NCBI GenBank assembly: GCA_018401745.1
Contig: JAGYJY010000008.1
Coordinates: forward strand, 31,699 to 95,698
DNA from: Pirellulales bacterium
GTDB taxonomy: Bacteria; Planctomycetota; Planctomycetia; Pirellulales; UBA1268
DNA length: 64,000 nt
Reading direction: 5' to 3'
Part shown: positions 5,443-54,273 of the stretch, in pieces
Numbering within the stretch: the first letter of the stretch is position 1
Layout of the letters: every line of letters starts with the position of its first letter
Translations under genes and position numbers: made by a program
The notes under the pieces: generated by a model
Told to the model about the DNA's origin: nothing
The model's input: the letters and a program-made list of their open reading frames with translations, nothing else
The model's database searches: none

Positions 5443-6795
5443 CTACCGCCGGATGGTGTCCCATGTCAGGTGGCCGAAGAGGGTCTCGCGGCCTCGCAAG
5501 ACGTAGAACTTCAGCGGGCCAAACCGCTCCTGCTGCGCTCGATCGAGCACGTAGGTCACGTTTTCTGGCCGGATCGTCTCCCAGACATGCAGGCCCACCA
5601 GGATGTCTCCGGCCTGAATCCCCTGCTCATCGGCAGGCCCACCAGCCCGCACCTCAACAACCTCGAGCCCTCCCCGGTAGCGGTTCTGCAGCTGCCGAAC
5701 CCGCATCGCCGCCATCGCCTCAACCCGCAGGCCCAGCTCTCGCCAGCAGCGTTCATCAGGGGAGACGGCATCGGACCGCAGCTCCGCCAACGGCAGCTCG
5801 ATCTGCTCGTGGCCTTCGGCACGAACCACCTCCACGTTGACCCGCTCGCCAGCCTTACGGCCGAGCAGGGCCCGCTCAATGTCGAGCTGGCTAGCCACCA
5901 TCGCATTGCCGATCCTGACGATCCGGTCGCCAGCACGCACGCCAACCTGCTCCGCGGGGCTGGCCCGATGCACTGTGGTGACCACCGCGCCCCCCTGCAG
6001 GTCGCGGCGAGCCACGATGCCATGCCAGGTGTGGTCGAGCCGCTCCACCGAGAGCAGCTCCGAGACCACTTCCAGCACCTTGTCGACAGGGATCGCAAAG
6101 CCGATCCCCTGGGCTCCGGCCCGCACGGCCACATTGACGCCGATCATCTCCCCGTCAATGTTCAGCAGCGGTCCGCCAGAGTTGCCAGGATTGATGCTCG
6201 CGTCGGTCTGGATCAGATCGTCATACCGCTGCGTCCGGCTCACCTCGACCGATCGGTGCAGGGCCGAAATGATCCCCCTGGTCACCGTGTGCTCGTATCC
6301 GTAGGCATTGCCCAGCGCCAGCACGGTCTCCCCAATCATCAGATCGCTCGACGTGCCGATCCGAACGACCTGGAGCTGGTGCGGCGGACTGATTTTGATG
6401 ATGGCGAGGTCTGTGCGGAGGTCGTGCGAGATGAGGGTGGCGGAGGTGGTCGCCCCGCTCGCGAGCGTGACCTCAATCCGCTCCACGCCCTCGACGACGT
6501 GGTAGTTGGTGACGACATAGCCGCGGCTATCGATCACAGCGCCTGTGCCCATGCCGTTGACGCGTTTGGGCTCATCCCCTTCGCTTGAGATCAGTTTCTG
6601 GCCGTGGATGTTGACGACCGCATCCCGCTGCGACGCGATCGCATCCACGATCGCCGTGCGGCGGGATTCCGCGGCGACAGCCACCGGCTGCAGCACGCAG
6701 CACGCCAGGCCCAGGAGCATCGCGTTCACCATCGTGGCACGAACGCTCGCGACCCGACGGGCGAGTCGCGCAGGGAAGGGCTGACGTCGCGGCAT
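5443..6795 (-). CDS. HtrA/DegP-family periplasmic serine protease with PDZ domains
   Basis: Catalytic triad context: VVTNYHVV (His), DLAIIKI (Asp), TDASINPGNSGGPLLN (Ser). Two PDZ-like regions follow. Signal-like N-terminus from ATG 6795 (alternative upstream start at 6855). Confidence 0.85.
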   Translation of the reverse strand: MPRRQPFPARLARRVASVRATMVNAMLLGLACCVLQPVAVAAESRRTAIVDAIASQRDAVVNIHGQKLISSEGDEPKRVNGMGTGAVIDSRGYVVTNYHVVEGVERIEVTLASGATTSATLISHDLRTDLAIIKISPPHQLQVVRIGTSSDLMIGETVLALGNAYGYEHTVTRGIISALHRSVEVSRTQRYDDLIQTDASINPGNSGGPLLNIDGEMIGVNVAVRAGAQGIGFAIPVDKVLEVVSELLSVERLDHTWHGIVARRDLQGGAVVTTVHRASPAEQVGVRAGDRIVRIGNAMVASQLDIERALLGRKAGERVNVEVVRAEGHEQIELPLAELRSDAVSPDERCWRELGLRVEAMAAMRVRQLQNRYRGGLEVVEVRAGGPADEQGIQAGDILVGLHVWETIRPENVTYVLDRAQQERFGPLKFYVLRGRETLFGHLTWDTIRR

Positions 6796-13637: not shown

Positions 13638-13725
13638 CAGACGACGACTCGCAGGCGGTGGAACACGTCTGCTGCCGCAGGATGCGGCGACCGGCGACCC
13701 CCGAAAACCTCGGCTTTGGGGGCGG

Positions 13726-37062: not shown

Positions 37063-37081
37063 TTCGTGCGGCTAGCTGTCT

Positions 37082-37112
37082 GTGGAAAAAGCCATCCAAG
37101 GCCTTTTTCCAC
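37082..37112. terminator. Possible bidirectional hairpin between convergent genes
   Basis: GTGGAAAAAGCC-ATCCAA-GGCCTTTTTCCAC forms a 12-13 bp stem with one bulge between the DUF1080 stop and the mdh stop. No clean trailing U-run. Confidence 0.35.
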
Positions 37113-37291
37113 CTGGGCAACACCCGAAAACGCCGAGGGTTTTCAGGGTTGCCGATCGCCGCATCCTGCGGCGGCGGACTATTTCCACAGTCTGCTAGCG
37201 AGGACAAGCACCCGTGGACACGCACCGACGGCTTCATGAGCCGCGATGACGACCGCGACTGGTGCGCGGAGCCCGCATACCAGCTGGCGGC

Positions 37292-44513: not shown

Positions 44514-44603
44514 CTGCTGCTCCTGAACTCCGCTCCACTCAAACCTCCGGGCGGGTGCCCGGCGGCCGTGCCGGCACGCGCCGGCAAGACGGCCATGAAT
44601 CGT

Positions 44604-45299
44604 TTACGTCTGCCGAATCAGCTCCACGCTCTCCGCATGGTCGAGGTCGGCAGCATTGCCTTCGTCGGTGTCGATGTGCACCTCAAGTTTGCTCGTCGCG
44701 TCGGCCCGCACGAGCAGGTCGCGAAACACGGTGCTGCAGCTGCCCTTGATCACAAGGCTCATGCGGTCGCCGTCACGGACACCAAAAAACTCGGCGTCGG
44801 CGTGGCTCATGTGGACATGCCGCTCGGCACGGATCACGCCCTCGGAAAGCTCAATCGCCCCAGCTGGCCCGACGAGCACGCAGCCTGGGGTGCCGGCGAT
44901 TTTGCCACTGGCGCGAACTGGGAGCGTGAGGCCGAGGGAGATCGCATCCGTGAAGGCGAGTTCCACCTGCGAGGCCTTCCGCGTAGGGCCGAGCACCCGC
45001 ACCGTCGGCAGCATTCGCCGCTTGGGCCCGACCACCATCACGGTTTCCTCGGCGGCATAAAAGCCGTCTTGGTAGAGGCTCTTCTGCGGCGTGAGCGTGC
45101 TGCCAGGGCCGAAGAGCTTCTCAACGTGCGCATCAGTTAGATGACAGTGCCGGGCGGAGATGCTGACCACGAGCTTCGGCTCGCCGGCGGGCTGCTGCGA
45201 TGGCGGCGGCTCGTGCGAGCGGAGCACGATCTCACGAACGATCCGTTCGACCTGGGAGCGATCGAGGCCCGCGGCCATGGTGGGCAGGGAAAGACTCAT
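44604..45299 (-). CDS. pduL: PduL-type phosphotransacylase with an N-terminal encapsulation peptide
   Basis: Two PduL repeats (ISARHCHL..., RAERHVHMS...). N-terminal helix [14 protein letters not shown] plus a Pro-rich linker. Confidence 0.85.
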
Positions 45300-46125
45300 G
45301 CGGCAGGCTCCTCACCGTGAGACGTGGAGAGAGTGGAGAGGTCAGCGTCGTCATCGCTGACCGGCGTGGTCACCAACCGCACACCGGCCTGGGCAACCTT
45401 CTTCCGCCATGGCGGTGCGAGGCCCTCGTCGACCACGAGGCAGTTGATATCGCTGAGCCCACAGACGAGCGTCAGGCTCCGACGTCCAAACTTGGAGCTG
45501 TCGGCCACAACAATCACGCGGCTGCCAGCCTTGAGCATTGCCTGCTCGGTTTCGGCCAGCAGCAGATGGGCGTTGAAGAGGCCTTCCTCGGCGATTCCGG
45601 CAGCGGAGAGCACGGTCGTGGAGACGTGCAGCCGGCCGAGCAGTTCGTTGGCGTAGGGGCCGAGGCAGACGCCTGTTTTGGGTGAGACGTAGCCCCCGAG
45701 CAGAACGAGATCAGTCCGCGACTCCGAGACGAACAGGTTTGCCACCGGCAGGCTGTTGGTGACCACCTGCAAAGGCCTGCCGACAAGCTGGCGGGCCACT
45801 TCGTAGGTGGTGGTGCCGCCATCGAGCAAAACGGTCTCGCCATCCTCGATTTCTTCGGCGGCGGTAGCCGCGATCGCCCGCTTGGCCGCCCAGTTGGCTG
45901 GCTGCCGCTGGTCAAACTCCTCGAGCTTCGGGCTCGGCCACCGCGATAGACGGCTCCACCATGCGTCCGCCGAGCGATGCCCTGCTCCTCGAGGAAGTCG
46001 AGATCGCGACGAATGGTCGATTCTGAAACCGCCAGCTCGCGGACAAGTTCGTCCAGCGACGCAAAGCCGCGGACGCGGATCAGGTCGGTGAGGCGGTGCC
46101 GCCGTTGCTGGGAGTGTGCTGGCAT
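45296..46125 (-). pseudogene. DeoR-family transcriptional regulator of the BMC locus, frame broken once
   Basis: The HTH half (SLDELVRELAVSESTIRRDLDFLEEQGIARRTHGGAVY) is in ORF 45514..46209. The sugar-phosphate-binding half (KRAIAATAAEEIEDGETVLLDGGTTT...) is in ORF 45296..46174. One missing base near 45935-45940 joins them. The stop overlaps the pduL ATG as ATGA. Confidence 0.8.
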
Positions 46126-46367
46126 GGTGAAACCCCGAATGCCACCAGCATGACTCAACGCGATCATTTTGCAACCGTTTTCAATCGCGTCCCGCATGGT
46201 TTCAATCAAAAACTCACAAACGACTGCCAGGAAGCAACAAAAACGTGGCTCGCCACCACACTGCGCACTCTGCGCAAACCCTGCGGCCTCCCGTCGCCCC
46301 CAAATCTAGCCCACAAAAACCCGCAAGAAAGAAAACCACCAAAAAAGGCCACAATCAGACCGCTTCC
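46126..46367 (-). promoter_or_regulatory. Comparatively AT-rich upstream region of the deoR/BMC operon (candidate promoter/operator)
   Basis: A local drop in GC directly 5' of deoR. Contains a direct repeat of GTTTCAAT(C) (CCGTTTTCAATCG / TGGTTTCAATCA). No consensus promoter identified. Confidence 0.3.
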
Positions 46368-46775
46368 CGGGACGGGCCCGCGGGTGCCGCCCGCCGTGAA
46401 CGGGACGGGTCCGCGGGTACCGCGCCGTGAACGGGACGGGTCCGCGGGTACCGCGCCGTGAACGGGACGGGTCCGCGGGCCGCGAAGCGGCCGCGGCACA
46501 GCCGAGGTGCCTGCGGCACCCGTGGACCCGTCCCGCTTGCGTAGAGGCTGACCGGCCGCTGGCCGCCGCGTCCGCGAGCGGACAGGCCCGGCCTGCAAAG
46601 CGCTTCAGCGAGCGGGTGAGCCCGGGACCTGACCCGCCGGCGTACAGGAGCCGAGCGACGCCCGGAGGGCCAAAGCGCAAGCGGATATCCGAGCCGAGCC
46701 GCAGGCCGCCTGCGAGGGCCCGCAGCGAGCGTCCGGAGGGGCAGCCCCGGGCTCACCCCGAGCGGCCCACCCACC
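46368..46775. repeat. Composite GC-rich repeat element, copy A
   Basis: Three tandem units of about 31 nt (CGGGACGGGTCCGCGGGTACCGCGCCGTGAA). Next comes a long imperfect hairpin (GGGACGGGTCCGCGGG...CCCGTGGACCCGTCCC). A 3' module is shared with copy B (GGGTGAGCCCGGG, CCCGGAGGGCNAAAGCG, GGGCTCACCCCGAGCGGCCCACCC). The element ends at the purN stop codon. Confidence 0.8.
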
Positions 46776-47407
46776 CTACCGAGCCACCGGCACACCAGGC
46801 GGCAGCGGCAGGGCGCCGTGGTCGCCGCGGACAATCGCCTGGATTGTTGTGGGAAGGAGCTGGCACTCGGCCGTGAAGACACGGGCGGCGAGGGTGTCGG
46901 GGGTGTCGCTCGCCTCAACCGGCACGACGTGCTGGGCGAGCACCCGCCCGTTGTCATAGACCTCGTCGACGAGGTGCACGGTGCAGCCGGAGACCGTGCA
47001 GCCGCGTTTGATCACGGCCCGGTGCACGGCAGCACCATGAAAACCCTTCCCGCCGAAAGCTGGCAGCAACGAGGGGTGGATGTTGACGACGCGGCCGATG
47101 TAGTCAGCAGGGATTGCCAGCAGCTGCAGGTAGCCGCCAAGCACGACGAGATCGACATGCTGCTCGCGACAGGCGGCGAAGGCCCGATCGCTGACATCGG
47201 CAGCACTGCTCTGGCGGGGGTCGAGCACCTGCGTGACGAGCCCCGCGTTGCGGGCGATTGCCGTGCCACGGATGTCCTCCCGGCTGGCGACCACGAGCAC
47301 GATCTCCGCGTCGAGCCGGCCGTCGGCGATCCAGGTGAGCAGGTTTTCAAGTGTGCGGCCGCTGCCAGACAGGAAGACGGCCAGCCGCAGCCTGGCGGCA
47401 GCTGGCA

Positions 47408-47411
<4 letters not shown>
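46776..47411 (-). CDS. purN: Phosphoribosylglycinamide formyltransferase
   Basis: LAVFLSGSGRTLENL, NIHPSLLPAFGG, GCTVHLVDEVYDNG. Start is either GTG 47411 (GTGA overlap with the ileS stop) or ATG 47408. Confidence 0.85.
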
Positions 47412-50901
<3,490 letters not shown>

Positions 50902-50906
50902 GCGTC

Positions 50907-51742
50907 CTATAGTTCCGCCGCACCTGCATCACGAACAATCGCCGTGATGACCGCTCTCAGCTTTGGCTCCGCCGACCGGGCGACTGCGAGAATCTTCTCC
51001 ACGCTCGCCTCCTCGAGGGCATCCGGCAGGCACATGTCGGTGACCACCGAGAGGCCGAGCACCTTCAGCCCGGCATGCACCGCGACGATGACTTCAGGCA
51101 CCGTCGACATGCCCACCACATCGGCTCCAATCGTCCGCAGGAAGCGGTATTCCGCCCGCGTCTCAGGTTCGGCCCCGTGACCGCCACGTAGACACCCCGG
51201 TGGGCAACAAAGTTTTCCTGCCGGGCGATCTCCAGCGCTCGATCGATAAACTCCGGCGTGTAGGGGGCCGACATGTCGGGGAAGCGGGGCCCGAGGCGAT
51301 CGTCGTTGATCCCAATCAACGGGTTGCCGTTCATCAGGTTGATGTGGTCATCGATCACCATGATGTCGCCAGCACTGTAGTGCGGATTCATGCCGCCGCA
51401 GGCGTTGGTGACGATCAGCGTCTCCCCGCCAAGCCGCTTGAGCACACGCACCGGCAGGGTGATCTGGTCGAGCGGGTAGCCCTCGTAGGCATGCATGCGG
51501 CCCTCAAGCACGACCACCGGCACGCCTTCCAGCAGACCACAGACCAGCTGCCCGGCATGGCCATGGGCGGTCGATTTGGCGTAGTGAGGGATCTCCTCAT
51601 AAGGAATCACCACCCGCTCGGTCACCTGCTCGGCAACGCTGCCAAGGCCGCTGCCGAGAATGATGCCGACAGCGGGCTGGAGGGCCCAGCGGCTGGAAAT
51701 CGCCTGAGAGGCTTCTTCAATCTGGTCGTGGAGATGCAGCAT
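50907..51742 (-). pseudogene. Purine nucleoside phosphorylase (PunA-type), frame broken once
   Basis: GIILGSGLG, GRMHAYEGY and VTNACGG are in ORF 51065..51742. [19 protein letters not shown] follows in ORF 50907..51119. Adding one G near 51163-51166 restores [20 protein letters not shown]. Confidence 0.85.
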
Positions 51743-52105: not shown

Positions 52106-52391
52106 GTGCGGATTCTCATAACAAGCCACCCGCAGGCTCAAAGCCCGCCGGACGTAAGAGAGTGAAGAGAAGCATTCTACCGATTCCTCGTCAACCCGCT
52201 GCCGCAGGCAAACCCGCTTTCCACCGCCTGTCCCTGCCGCAGCGATGCATTTCCTGCCAACGACGTGAGCGGGAAGACCGCGCGCGGGTGGTCCGGCTCG
52301 GCAGGCGGCAAAAGTCGCGTCGCTGGGCCAGGATAGGCCAAACGCTCCTCGAGCGTTCGCCGACCCGCCGAGCCTCCACTTTCCTGTCAAT

Positions 52392-53049
52392 GACGGGAAC
52401 GGGACGGTCCTGGGCCGCAAAGCGGATACACACGCAAGCGGGACGGGTCCTCGGCCGCGAAGCGGATACACGCAGCGGGACGGGTCCTCGGCCGCAAAGC
52501 GGCTCGCTGCCGAGTGCCTCCGGCACCCGAAGACCCGTCCCGTTCAATCCGCCTCCGGCACCCGAAGACCGTCCCGTTCAACCGCCTCCGGCACCCGAAG
52601 ACCCGTCCCGCTCGACCGCCCGCCGCACCGCACGCCGCCGACCCCACTCGGCCCTGTCCACCCACTCCCGGCCGCAGGCCGCCCTGCAGCGGACAGAACG
52701 AACGGGACGGGTCCTCGGGCCGCGAAGCGGCCTCGGCGAAGCCGAGGTGCCTCGCGGCACCCGAAGACCCGTCCCGCTTGCACGCCCCACCCCGCCCAGC
52801 CCCGCCTTCCCCGGCCGCAGATCGCCGCGAAGCGGCGAACAGGCCGTCCCTAAACCGTAAGCGAGGGGTGAGCCCGGGCCGAATGAGCCGGCCTTGCAGT
52901 CGAGCGAAGCCCGGAGGGCGAAAGCGAGAATGCACGAGTGAGCGAAGCCAGGATGGCGAAGCGAACGCTCGGCGAATCGGCTTGGGCTCACCCCGAGCGA
53001 CCCCGAACGCTCGGCGAATCGGCCTGGGCTCACCCCGAGCGGCCCACCC
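52392..53049. repeat. Composite GC-rich repeat element, copy B
   Basis: Three direct CGGGACGG(G)TCCTCGGCCGC(G/A)AAGCGG units are followed by three inverted CTCCGGCACCCGAAGACC(C)GTCCCG units. A further complete hairpin sits at 52703-52776. The shared 3' module follows, with a 2 x 41-nt tandem duplication (52964-53045). The element ends at the argJ stop codon. Confidence 0.8.
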
Positions 53050-54273
53050 TCAGGTGTGATAATCCGCATTCAGATGCACGTATTCCGCCGTCAGGTCGCT
53101 GGAATAAAAGCGGATCGTGCCCGGGCCGTCACCCACCTCGAGCCGAATCTCGGTCTCGCGGTTGTCTCGAATCGACTGCGACACGGCGACCGCATCAAAG
53201 GCGACCGGAGCGCCGGCCGTGAAGAGCAGGGTGCCGTTGACGTGCAGGGTGAGCTGGTCGGCCGCGAAGGAAACTCCCGCATAGCCCGCGGCTGACACAA
53301 TGCGGCCCCAGTTGGGATCGGCGCCCGAGATCGCGGTTTTCACCAAAGGACTGTCGGCAACGGTGCGAGCGATCTGGCGGGCGGCATCGCGGCTGGCGGC
53401 GCCGGTGACGTCGATTCGGATCACATGCGTGGCCCCTTCGCCATCGTCGGCGATCTCACGGGCAAGCGTCCGGCAGGTCTCGGTGAGCAGCCGGCCAAAC
53501 TCGTCCAGGTCGTGGCCCTCGAGGCAGGAGCCGCCGGCCGCAGCGTTGGCCAGGAGGAGCACGGTGTCGTTCGTGCTGGTGTGGCCATCGACGCTGACGC
53601 AGTTGAACGTCTCCTCGCAGGCTTGGCGAAGCAACCGCTGGCCGTCGTCCACCGCCAGCGGGGCATCCGTGAGCACGATGCCGAGCATGGTCGCCATCCG
53701 CGGGCCCACCATCGCGGCCCCTTTGGCGACGCCTGTGATCGAAATCGAGCGATCGCCAGCGATGAAGGTTGAGCCGCAGAGTTTTGGACGGGTGTCGGTG
53801 GTCATCATGCCGCGGGCAGCCAACACCAGAGACCTCTGGTCGTCGCTCAGCAGCTCCGCCGCCTGACCGATCCCGGCCAGCAGCGTGGGCATGGGCAGAA
53901 ACTCGCCGATGATACCCGTGGAGAGCACGAGCACTTCCGAGGCTGCTGCTCCCACGCTGTGAGCAGCGGCTGCCGCCATCGCCTCGGCGTCGGCCAGGCC
54001 GCGGGGGCCCGTGCAGGCGTTGGCGTTGCCGGAGTTGACCACGATCACTCGAAAGCCCTCGCCCGGCGTCCGCTCGCGGTCGTAAGCGACAGGAGCGGCA
54101 TAGACGAGGTTCGTGGTGTAGACGCCCGCGGCCGTTGCTGGTCTGTCCGAGACAAACAGCGCGACATCCTCCCGGGTGGGATTGCGTTTGAGGCCCGCGT
54201 GAATACCAGCCGCTCGAAAGCCGGCAGGCAGGTCAGGAACGGGAAGCTGCAAGGGGGTCTCAGCGATCGGCAT
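53050..54273 (-). CDS. argJ: Bifunctional glutamate N-acetyltransferase / amino-acid acetyltransferase
   Basis: GFRAAGIHAGLK, the autoproteolytic region ATMLGIVLTDA, and TNDTVLLLAN. ATG at 54273. Confidence 0.9.
   Translation of the reverse strand: MPIAETPLQLPVPDLPAGFRAAGIHAGLKRNPTREDVALFVSDRPATAAGVYTTNLVYAAPVAYDRERTPGEGFRVIVVNSGNANACTGPRGLADAEAMAAAAAHSVGAAASEVLVLSTGIIGEFLPMPTLLAGIGQAAELLSDDQRSLVLAARGMMTTDTRPKLCGSTFIAGDRSISITGVAKGAAMVGPRMATMLGIVLTDAPLAVDDGQRLLRQACEETFNCVSVDGHTSTNDTVLLLANAAAGGSCLEGHDLDEFGRLLTETCRTLAREIADDGEGATHVIRIDVTGAASRDAARQIARTVADSPLVKTAISGADPNWGRIVSAAGYAGVSFAADQLTLHVNGTLLFTAGAPVAFDAVAVSQSIRDNRETEIRLEVGDGPGTIRFYSSDLTAEYVHLNADYHT

Follow-up and report, generated by a model that had tools for sequence, protein, structure and literature searches.

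What kind of element is it that ends against the stop codon of a purN-like gene in this planctomycete contig, and why should it lie there? The window, i.e., the whole stretch of DNA analysed here (64 kb), contains two GC-rich composite blocks, copy A at approximately 46347-46775 and copy B at 52392-53049, inside which the G+C content rises from about 0.65 to 0.76. A preliminary description had presented copy A as a series of tandem units, a long hairpin and a 3' module abutting the purN stop, had recognised parts of it in copy B, and had left the element without a family. Much is known of dispersed palindromic repeats in proteobacteria, but hardly any have been described in Planctomycetota, and our literature search found no description of this repeat family for planctomycetes.

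The layout of copy A proved largely as had been described. Tandem units of about 31 nt were recovered by Tandem Repeats Finder with a period of 31, 3.5 copies and 95% matches at 46368-46479, and a repeat search of the window gave the 31-nt unit four times at 46359-46484; the left edge, formerly placed at 46368, probably lies slightly further left, at about 46347. The core GGGACGGGTCC is present in the three tandem units that had been said to carry it, the first unit having GGGACGGGCCC with one mismatch. When at most one mismatch was allowed, this core occurred 12 times in the window against 2.6 expected, a number reached by none of 100 shuffles, and 11 of the 12 occurrences fall inside copies A and B. 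Each upstream unit of copy A could pair with the only right arm (46513-46535) at 91% complementarity, and the hairpin of about 70 nt has as its arms a 35-nt inverted pair, 46463-46497 and 46501-46535, which contains a unit of 71 nt (Table 1). The long-range inverted repeat GGGTGAGCCCGGG / CCCGGGCTCACCC is 13 nt long and 100% complementary (46614-46626 and 46746-46758), and the 3' blocks reported as common to both copies were found in both; the block GGGCTCACCCCGAGCG, for example, is exact at 46749, 52984 and 53026. The gene to the right of copy A codes for a formyltransferase (PF00551, E 2.3e-37); homologues of this protein carry the name phosphoribosylglycinamide formyltransferase. The stop codon of the gene, CTA on the + strand at 46776-46778, stands 3 nt past ...GGCCCACCC. 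An exact look-up of the window PurN protein returned no record, the nearest homologue in the collection being 94% identical. What had to be revised was the relationship between the two copies: each is a composite repeat, as had been stated, but A and B are different mosaics of at least three independent modules.

Table 1. Positions of the repeat modules and of the adjoining purN-like gene in the 64-kb window
Feature	Position	Strand	Remarks
Copy A, distal end	46347..46462	none	Leader GGCCACAATCAGACCGCTTCCC, then tandem H half-units; left limit approximate
Copy A, half-units	46347..46462		One degenerate and two identical 31-nt units, each with arm GGGACGGGTCCGCGGG and a truncated small hairpin
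Copy A, complete H unit	46464..46534		71 nt; three small hairpins inside a 16-bp outer stem
Copy A, linker module M	46543..46613		Degenerate; GCCGCCGC...GCGG-type hairpin; conserved ...CAGCGAGC junction to T
Copy A, module T	46614..46759	-	About 146 nt; bounding inverted repeats 13 nt perfect, about 27 nt imperfect
Copy A, gene-proximal leader of T	46760..46775	-	GGTGGGTGGGCCGCTC on the purN sense strand; ends against the purN stop
purN-like formyltransferase gene	46776..47411	-	TAG stop at 46776-46778 adjoins the repeat block
Further module left of copy B	52272..52403		Contains GTGGAGGCTCGG and GGTCGGCGAACGCT; 83-95% identity to MAG loci L032 and L012
Copy B, nested H array	52392..52620		Three left half-units (period 37), central hairpin, three right half-units (period 34)
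Copy B, second complete H unit	52704..52775		Core inverted relative to the flanks in comparison with the canonical form
Copy B, module M	52776..52864	none	CCGGCCGCAGATCGCCGCGAAGCGGCGAACAGGCCGTCCCTAAACC...GCGAG
Copy B, module T	52865..53049	-	Second subtype with a different interior; gene-proximal end duplicated in tandem, 42 nt

On the basis of comparisons among all copies collected, the block is a mosaic of at least three separable modules, which we designate H, M and T. Module H has exactly 71 nt in nearly all complete copies, with few exceptions, and consists of an outer stem of 16 bp (GGGACGGGTCCNCGGG ... CCCGNNGACCCGTCCC) enclosing inner hairpins of 4, 7 and 4 bp; the outer stem and the three small hairpins are predicted to form a four-way junction or, alternatively, one long hairpin. 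A covariance model built from 29 copies, including the unit of copy A, assigned 86.6 bits (E 3e-14) to that unit, which has one G.T in its outer stem at position 12 on the + strand, and 89.9 bits to the second complete unit of copy B and 62.2 bits to the shortened central hairpin at 52477-52541 in the array of copy B. These are the only three complete H units in the window, the next match having 23 bits. Outside a complete unit, extra arms together with part of the adjoining small hairpin are repeated in tandem with periods of 29-42 nt, giving nested patterns such as LLLLR in copy A, LLL-RRR in copy B, and LRR or LLRR elsewhere; half-unit arrays like that of copy A occur also in the MAG loci L015, L048 and L049. 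In the assembly of the window, two frameshifts appear in ileS when it is compared with orthologues of 97-99% identity, and because of these errors in the same assembly some single-base deletions in the arms, e.g., GACC-GTCCC in copy B, may be assembly errors as well.

Module M is a linker hairpin of the form CCGGCCGCAG-GCCGCCGC-loop-GCGGCGGACAGGCCGTCC, clearer copies of which are present in copy B and at loci L008, L018, L058 and L179. Module T is about 150 nt long and bears inverted repeats of 13-27 bp at a constant spacing of either 119-127 or 153 nt; at least three subtypes with differing interiors can be distinguished, and the gene-proximal end has been amplified in 42-nt tandem copies, twice in copy B and up to four times at locus L153. 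Its boundary is sharp: conservation over 79 copies collapses 7 nt upstream of the anchor CGCTCGGGGTGAGCCC, which is preceded by a variable G-rich leader. The T of copy A, delimited partly by alignment with six other T copies, has inverted repeats beginning GGGGTGAG when read from the purN side. The flanks of the T inverted repeats, AGCGA and GAGCG, are conserved from copy to copy, and neither duplicates the other.

Whichever strand is taken, the predicted fold of module H is much more stable than that of shuffled controls (z from -5.6 to -9.3; -6.8 on the + strand and -5.6 on the - strand for the unit of copy A, and -7.4 and -9.3 for the second complete unit of copy B), and the T and M part folds no better than composition-matched shuffles (z -1.0 and -2.1). 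The GCGAAGC mini-hairpin motif was not enriched in the window, with 30 occurrences against 26 expected. When the four-helix model was laid over 29 distinct H units, 96.8% of the cells were paired, and four pairs had double-sided changes, in 12 cells; none of 500 shuffles reached these values, slid controls of the alignment gave at most one double-sided pair, and the three loops are the most variable columns. This covariation gives modest support to a constraint on pairing, the evidence being modest because the family is so similar (93% mean identity). The preliminary description had seen a hint of selection on structure in a partly compensatory difference between copies A and B. One half of that observation holds, since position 12/60 switches between G.T and T-A, but position 11/61 becomes a C.A mismatch; likewise the hint itself is borne out by the modest covariation, but the constraint does not look specific to an RNA strand. 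The outer stem is perfect in none of 34 H units, the arms always differing at positions 11-12, and this mismatch is G.T on one strand and A.C on the other. The G.U strand is not the transcribed one, as shown by 13 A.C against 9 G.U with strands read from one side only. Strand selection on H at the RNA level was therefore rejected, the G.U versus A.C asymmetry being unlinked to the transcribed strand. Relative to its asymmetric flanks, the H core is canonical in 18 units, wholly inverted in 10, and inverted in its interior alone in four, and this mixture of orientations indicates that hairpin-mediated inversions happened in the history of the family; possibly only a few such inversions took place and were copied thereafter.

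The element is by no means restricted to the window. A scan of one genome per species with the H-arm pattern gave at least 63 stretches; 29 of the 63 listed matches belong to one MAG, an uncultured Planctomycetaceae (CALCGM01...), many of them at contig ends, and the remaining listed matches are singletons in unrelated GC-rich genomes, compatible with chance. A scan of metagenomes with the end of T gave 107 stretches, mostly from two projects and again often at contig ends. The same modules are dispersed over 29 contigs of one Planctomycetaceae MAG and about 80 metagenome contigs. At many loci H is the only module, T may or may not be accompanied by H, and loci that are not orthologous share the order H-M-T. 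A T nearly identical to that of copy B (88% over 275 nt) was found at L058, which is not orthologous to the copy B locus. Between the window and the MAG the repeats are 88-99% identical, compared with 68-82% for the few shared non-repeat stretches, which are presumably coding, and homologues of the flanking proteins are labelled Planctomycetota or Pirellulales. The repeat family appears to be common to a group of Pirellulales-like planctomycetes. Between related genomes it has diverged less than the DNA around it, and its copies are numerous enough to interrupt metagenome assemblies, in which many contigs stop within the repeat.

The position of these copies relative to genes was examined with gene calls from a codon-usage model trained on 35 kb of called genes, which placed six of six test genes correctly in strand and frame. 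In 77 callable cases, the gene closest to the outer end of T is oriented toward T in 48 and away from it in 29. Where the gene points toward T, its stop lies within 5 nt of the T boundary in 26 of the 48 cases and within 20 nt in 37, and in six cases the stop codon is a TGA inside the T inverted repeat GGGGTGAGCCC. The genes pointing away are genuine, with start codons 30-120 nt from T, and the polarity of T relative to genes is only a modest bias; a fixed polarity toward 3' gene ends was considered and rejected, as the GC3-based ORF calls from which it came had confused genes with antisense shadows. H-containing clusters have the same tendency toward gene ends. The abutment noticed at purN is real, and it is a tendency of the whole family rather than a peculiarity of purN; the T of copy B, for instance, ends directly at the stop of argJ, a minus-strand gene (TCA on the + strand, 53050-53052). 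GTAG precedes T in 10 of 12 TAG-stop cases by reading, and this reflects the stop context of the gene itself and not a fixed foot.

Orthologous loci, retrieved via ArgJ and PurN homologues, allow filled sites to be compared with empty ones. The argJ site is empty at loci L175-L178 (84-85% ArgJ identity), where merely 75-95 nt of ordinary spacer are followed by a conserved promoter-like TTGACG...TAGAAT site and then a small acidic ORF. T subtype 2 stands immediately after the argJ TGA in the window, in L064 (100%) and in L172 (99%), and L173 and L174 (87%) have at the same place a variant of T subtype 1 plus M, without H. The purN site of L179 (94%) is filled as in the window, but its modules add up to about 180 nt more and its arm repeats differ in number; that of L181 (76%) is empty, and that of L182 (73%) holds yet another T subtype beginning at the stop codon. 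From these empty and differently filled sites we conclude that the block is an insertion, polymorphic among relatives, and that its internal makeup changes faster than the neighbouring genes. The differing T subtypes found at one site could be due to gene conversion between copies rather than to repeated insertion. At the sites examined, neither a clean junction of the insertion nor a target duplication was readable. Locus L163, where H lies within T, was also considered as an empty/filled comparison and set aside, because it is not a clean insertion and no target duplication is readable there.

We compared the block with the known kinds of elements that such a structure could represent. An Rfam scan of the whole window gave no match at the gathering threshold, and at a permissive threshold the best sub-threshold scores were 20-25 bits against cut-offs of 48-137, nothing credible among them; a match to a known insertion-sequence end was likewise lacking, so that the earlier failure to name a family was justified. 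No tRNA was found in the window. The reading as an intrinsic terminator was rejected because no GC-rich hairpin in the block is directly followed by a U tract; there is no U-tract terminator within copy A, and the only consensus terminator site near it is at 46262-46242 on the minus strand, beyond the block. A CRISPR array was rejected because the half-unit arrays have conserved linkers of 4-15 nt and not unique spacers. We also searched about 1 Mb of window and related-locus DNA for HUH-Y1 transposases of any class, both by the RAYT and class 3 motifs and by phmmer with three reference sequences, and found none (best E 0.86), a result that is expected if such a gene is single-copy; nor was any TIRYT gene bounded by T repeats among the loci examined. 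Locus L095 was considered as a possible "master" element and rejected: its two T copies in the same orientation enclose a toxin-antitoxin pair, the sole case of a T...T pair enclosing genes, and no transposase.

We consider it likely that the block is made up of clustered copies of dispersed repeats of the REP/BIME/REPIN type, which are non-coding and non-autonomous, form hairpins, and are probably moved by an HUH-Y1 protein. The modules would be mobilised in trans as single-stranded DNA hairpins by a single-copy HUH-Y1 enzyme encoded elsewhere in the genome, for which a RAYT/TIRYT-type protein or one of the planctomycete-enriched class 3 Y1 proteins would be conjectural candidates. After insertion, the half-unit arrays, the 42-nt repeats and the inverted cores would arise locally by replication slippage or template switching at the hairpins. 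Because copy A lies between the purN stop and the next terminator-like site (46262-46242), it probably belongs to the transcribed 3' UTR of purN, and there its very stable stems could block 3' exonucleases, and stems less than 15 nt from the stop could stall terminating ribosomes; such effects on the 3' UTRs of purN and argJ are what we infer by analogy with E. coli REPs. According to earlier work summarised in a 2025 survey (PMC12306157), an E. coli REP that lies no more than 15 nt from a stop causes ribosomes to stall and lowers translation, and in a study summarised there 260 of 496 REPs lie within 15 nt of a stop, so that the abutment of this family to stop codons has a precedent.

A rather unlikely account is that the block is a selected cis-acting RNA element of the purN and argJ 3' UTRs, acting as a stabiliser, a terminator without a U tract, or a staller of ribosomes, and that it has spread by recruitment and not by selfish mobility. 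Precedents exist for effects of REPs on mRNA decay and translation, and probable transcription of the block together with purN would agree with this account too. The location of most clusters just downstream of ORFs, with T often 0-5 nt from the stop, would also suit a function in the transcript, as would stems that are conserved with some covariation around freely varying loops and the high conservation across genomes. The same T end, however, faces the start of a gene in the 29 cases of 77 mentioned above, at 30-120 nt from the start codon; H is found in both orientations, and the transcribed strand is not the one that tolerates wobble pairs; in relatives the orthologous genes lack the block; and the module content at one locus varies between close relatives, with no Rfam family matching.

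Mobility of another sort would be involved if T, and perhaps H, were MITEs derived from an insertion sequence with a DDE transposase and moved by double-stranded cut-and-paste, which we regard as improbable. The terminal inverted repeats of T (13-27 bp), its constant size and its presence or absence in different relatives are what such elements would display, but no target-site duplication is visible in the clusters examined, whose distal boundary is not sharply set; the flanks AGCGA and GAGCG do not duplicate each other; none of the loci examined holds a longer element that shares these ends and contains a transposase ORF; and the start of the inverted repeat fits the motif of Y1-associated inverted repeats. 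A bolder version of Y1-dependent movement, which must be called quite improbable, is that planctomycetes possess a dedicated HUH-Y1 system, with H and T as its substrates, which targets specifically the nucleotide after the stop and copies hairpins by a rolling-hairpin-like process. If true, such copying would explain both the inverted cores and the nested half-unit arrays, and targeting and amplification of this sort would be undescribed for REP/RAYT systems. It is highly improbable that T is an attC-like site of integron-type gene cassettes: a palindromic site of about 150 nt directly after stop codons, and a toxin-antitoxin pair bracketed by two T copies at L095, do recall such cassettes, but the T ends have no RYYYAAC / GTTRRRY core sites, the neighbours (purN, argJ, ileS, tRNA synthetases) are housekeeping genes in conserved synteny, the orientation to the neighbouring gene is only 62:38, and no integrase was seen. 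A local duplication or assembly artefact confined to the window, for which the ileS frameshifts and some single-base arm differences might speak, has a negligible chance of being correct because the same modules are found in independent assemblies, in several projects and at non-orthologous loci.

This family matters for work on these genomes. Repeats inserted right at the stop codons of housekeeping genes offer a tractable case for studying how such elements come to be placed at the ends of genes and whether the little-known Y1 transposases of class 3 or of the TIRYT type mobilise them. There is also a practical stake for assembly and annotation, e.g., through spurious ORFs called in the GC-rich repeats, or through proteins whose C-terminus seems altered because their stop codon comes from the element.

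Among the systems with which this family can be compared, the terminal hairpins of the parvovirus type have a long outer stem with small internal palindromes, undergo flip/flop inversion, and are substrates of an HUH nuclease. Module H likewise has an outer stem around small palindromes and an interior found in both orientations, and would be a suitable substrate for HUH nucleases; the likeness is an analogy only, since unlike these hairpins H has no replicon, Rep gene or terminal position.

The class 3 family of Y1 proteins occurs mainly in Planctomycetes, and its genes are flanked by atypical high-copy secondary structures (Quentin 2018, PMC6006769). These structures, CnGA-GCCGCGACC-GTNA-GGGAGCGG with 26-30 nt, match none of H, M and T. 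Kinship with them was rejected, the single shared 8-mer CCGAGCCG having 19 occurrences in the window, which is not significant. The TIRYT genes, which constitute Y1 subclass 2.1 (PMC6006769), are flanked by long inverted repeats sharing GGGGWSAS, and dispersed families of these repeats exist, according to the account of them in Di Nocera (2013, PMC3733652). Like the TIRs of TIRtrons, the inverted repeat of T starts exactly with GGGGTGAG, which fits GGGG[AT][CG]A[CG], the complementarity of the arms begins there, and T copies are dispersed, as in TIR families, as inverted dimers and clusters; in a comparison with the published TIRs by consensus only, this 8-nt motif alone is held in common.

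The closest likeness is to REPs, BIMEs and REPINs (PMC3733652; Bertels and Rainey 2011, PMC3116915), and here differences should be stated together with the common points. A classical REP has 20-40 nt and a stem of 5-13 bp; H has 71 nt and four helices, twice the REP size, and T about 150 nt. Unlike a classical REP, H has no GT[AG]G (GTAG) or CGTC foot, its flanks being GCAAGC and GTTCA or their complements, and unlike the regular alternation in BIMEs, extra H arms are always nested, left arms together and right arms together. Because the GTAG/CGTC foot is missing and the unit is a larger one of four helices, we file these repeats as a new family and not as REPs proper. In other respects they follow the known pattern. 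Most REPs lie downstream of ORFs, in many cases in contact with the coding region, and they may even provide its stop codon; they often form inverted pairs with non-identical partners ("heterodimer"), sometimes linked to other repeats (PMC3733652). The repeats described here are, similarly, short GC-rich imperfect palindromes, high-copy, dispersed and extragenic, for the most part located after ORFs, where many of them reach the stop codon or provide it; they are specific to their family and conserved within a lineage. As in REPINs, two inverted arms fold into one larger hairpin with systematically different partners, so that not one of the 34 outer stems is perfect, and as in BIMEs, H, M, T and further modules are combined into mosaics that vary between strains and differ at orthologous and non-orthologous loci alike. 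The block at purN thus belongs to a new family of a known kind of repeat and not to a new kind of system.

In one related locus (L163) an H unit lies inside a T element, and therefore the repeat modules can nest or recombine with each other. We also found that the A-run/T-run hairpin module of a second dispersed family is present in relatives (L173, L179 and L048) inside their composite clusters, and thus this family is part of the same mosaic repertoire as the composite clusters. The left side of copy B carries a further conserved module, 83–95% identical to sequences that adjoin H arrays in the uncultured Planctomycetaceae assembly (L032 and L012).

The long direct repeats around H in two related contigs extend over the neighbouring gene's 3' end, stop codon included, and measure about 88 nt with 97% identity in L026 and about 38 nt in L029. 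Either the hairpin triggered them as tandem duplications, or they are target duplications of unusual length. In metagenome contigs, T subtype 2 has its gene-proximal 42-nt end in up to four tandem copies, the same event as in copy B of the window, where this end is present twice. In the related contig L095, two T elements, each downstream of a plus-strand gene, bracket a toxin-antitoxin pair, and this arrangement could reflect duplication, or insertion via recombination between T copies.

Coordinates of the features discussed (L numbers, related loci or contigs)
Feature	Location	Strand	Remarks
Phd/VapC-like toxin-antitoxin pair	L095 4219-5350		T element on either side, both oriented alike
42-nt end of T subtype 2, amplified	L153 6-260; also L097, L124, L151		tandem
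H units in direct repeats	L026 about 5830-6090; L029 41-230		long repeats of unique sequence
H unit within T	L163 899-1098		about 30 nt of T centre replaced
Second dispersed family	window 13648-13724, 37075-37198; L023 3963-4084	window +, -	CTAGCAGACTGTGGAACA..GTCTGCCGCCGCAGGATGCGGCGA..GGCGACCCCCAAAAACC-CGGCTTTTTGGGGGCGTCGCC
Module left of copy B	window 52272-52403; L032 1-97; L012 1-94		includes GTGGAGGCTCGG, GGTCGGCGAACGCT
ileS	window 47408-50928	-	three overlapping ORFs
Small, very acidic ORF	window 51815 to about 52100	-	...DFDDFDDDFDDDFEDEPDDPDWDHPDEE...; between argJ and PNP_UDP_1 gene
Promoter-like TTGACGA-N-TAGAAT site	window 52172-52197		conserved; upstream of acidic ORF

When intact orthologues (97–99% identical) were used as tblastn queries, two frameshifts were located in the window ileS, near 48260 and near 49720-49800. 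Since the gene is essential, the probable cause is indel errors in the window assembly, and single-base differences inside the repeats therefore deserve less trust.

The acidic ORF, which had no Pfam match on record, is kept at the same place in all relatives, where its length is 95–96 aa as called. In the relatives L179, L181 and L182, the genes downstream of the DeoR-type regulator code for PTAC (PF06130) and for shell proteins of bacterial microcompartments (PF00936); judging from synteny, the window probably has the same planctomycete microcompartment locus (about 44600-45300 and downstream, minus strand).
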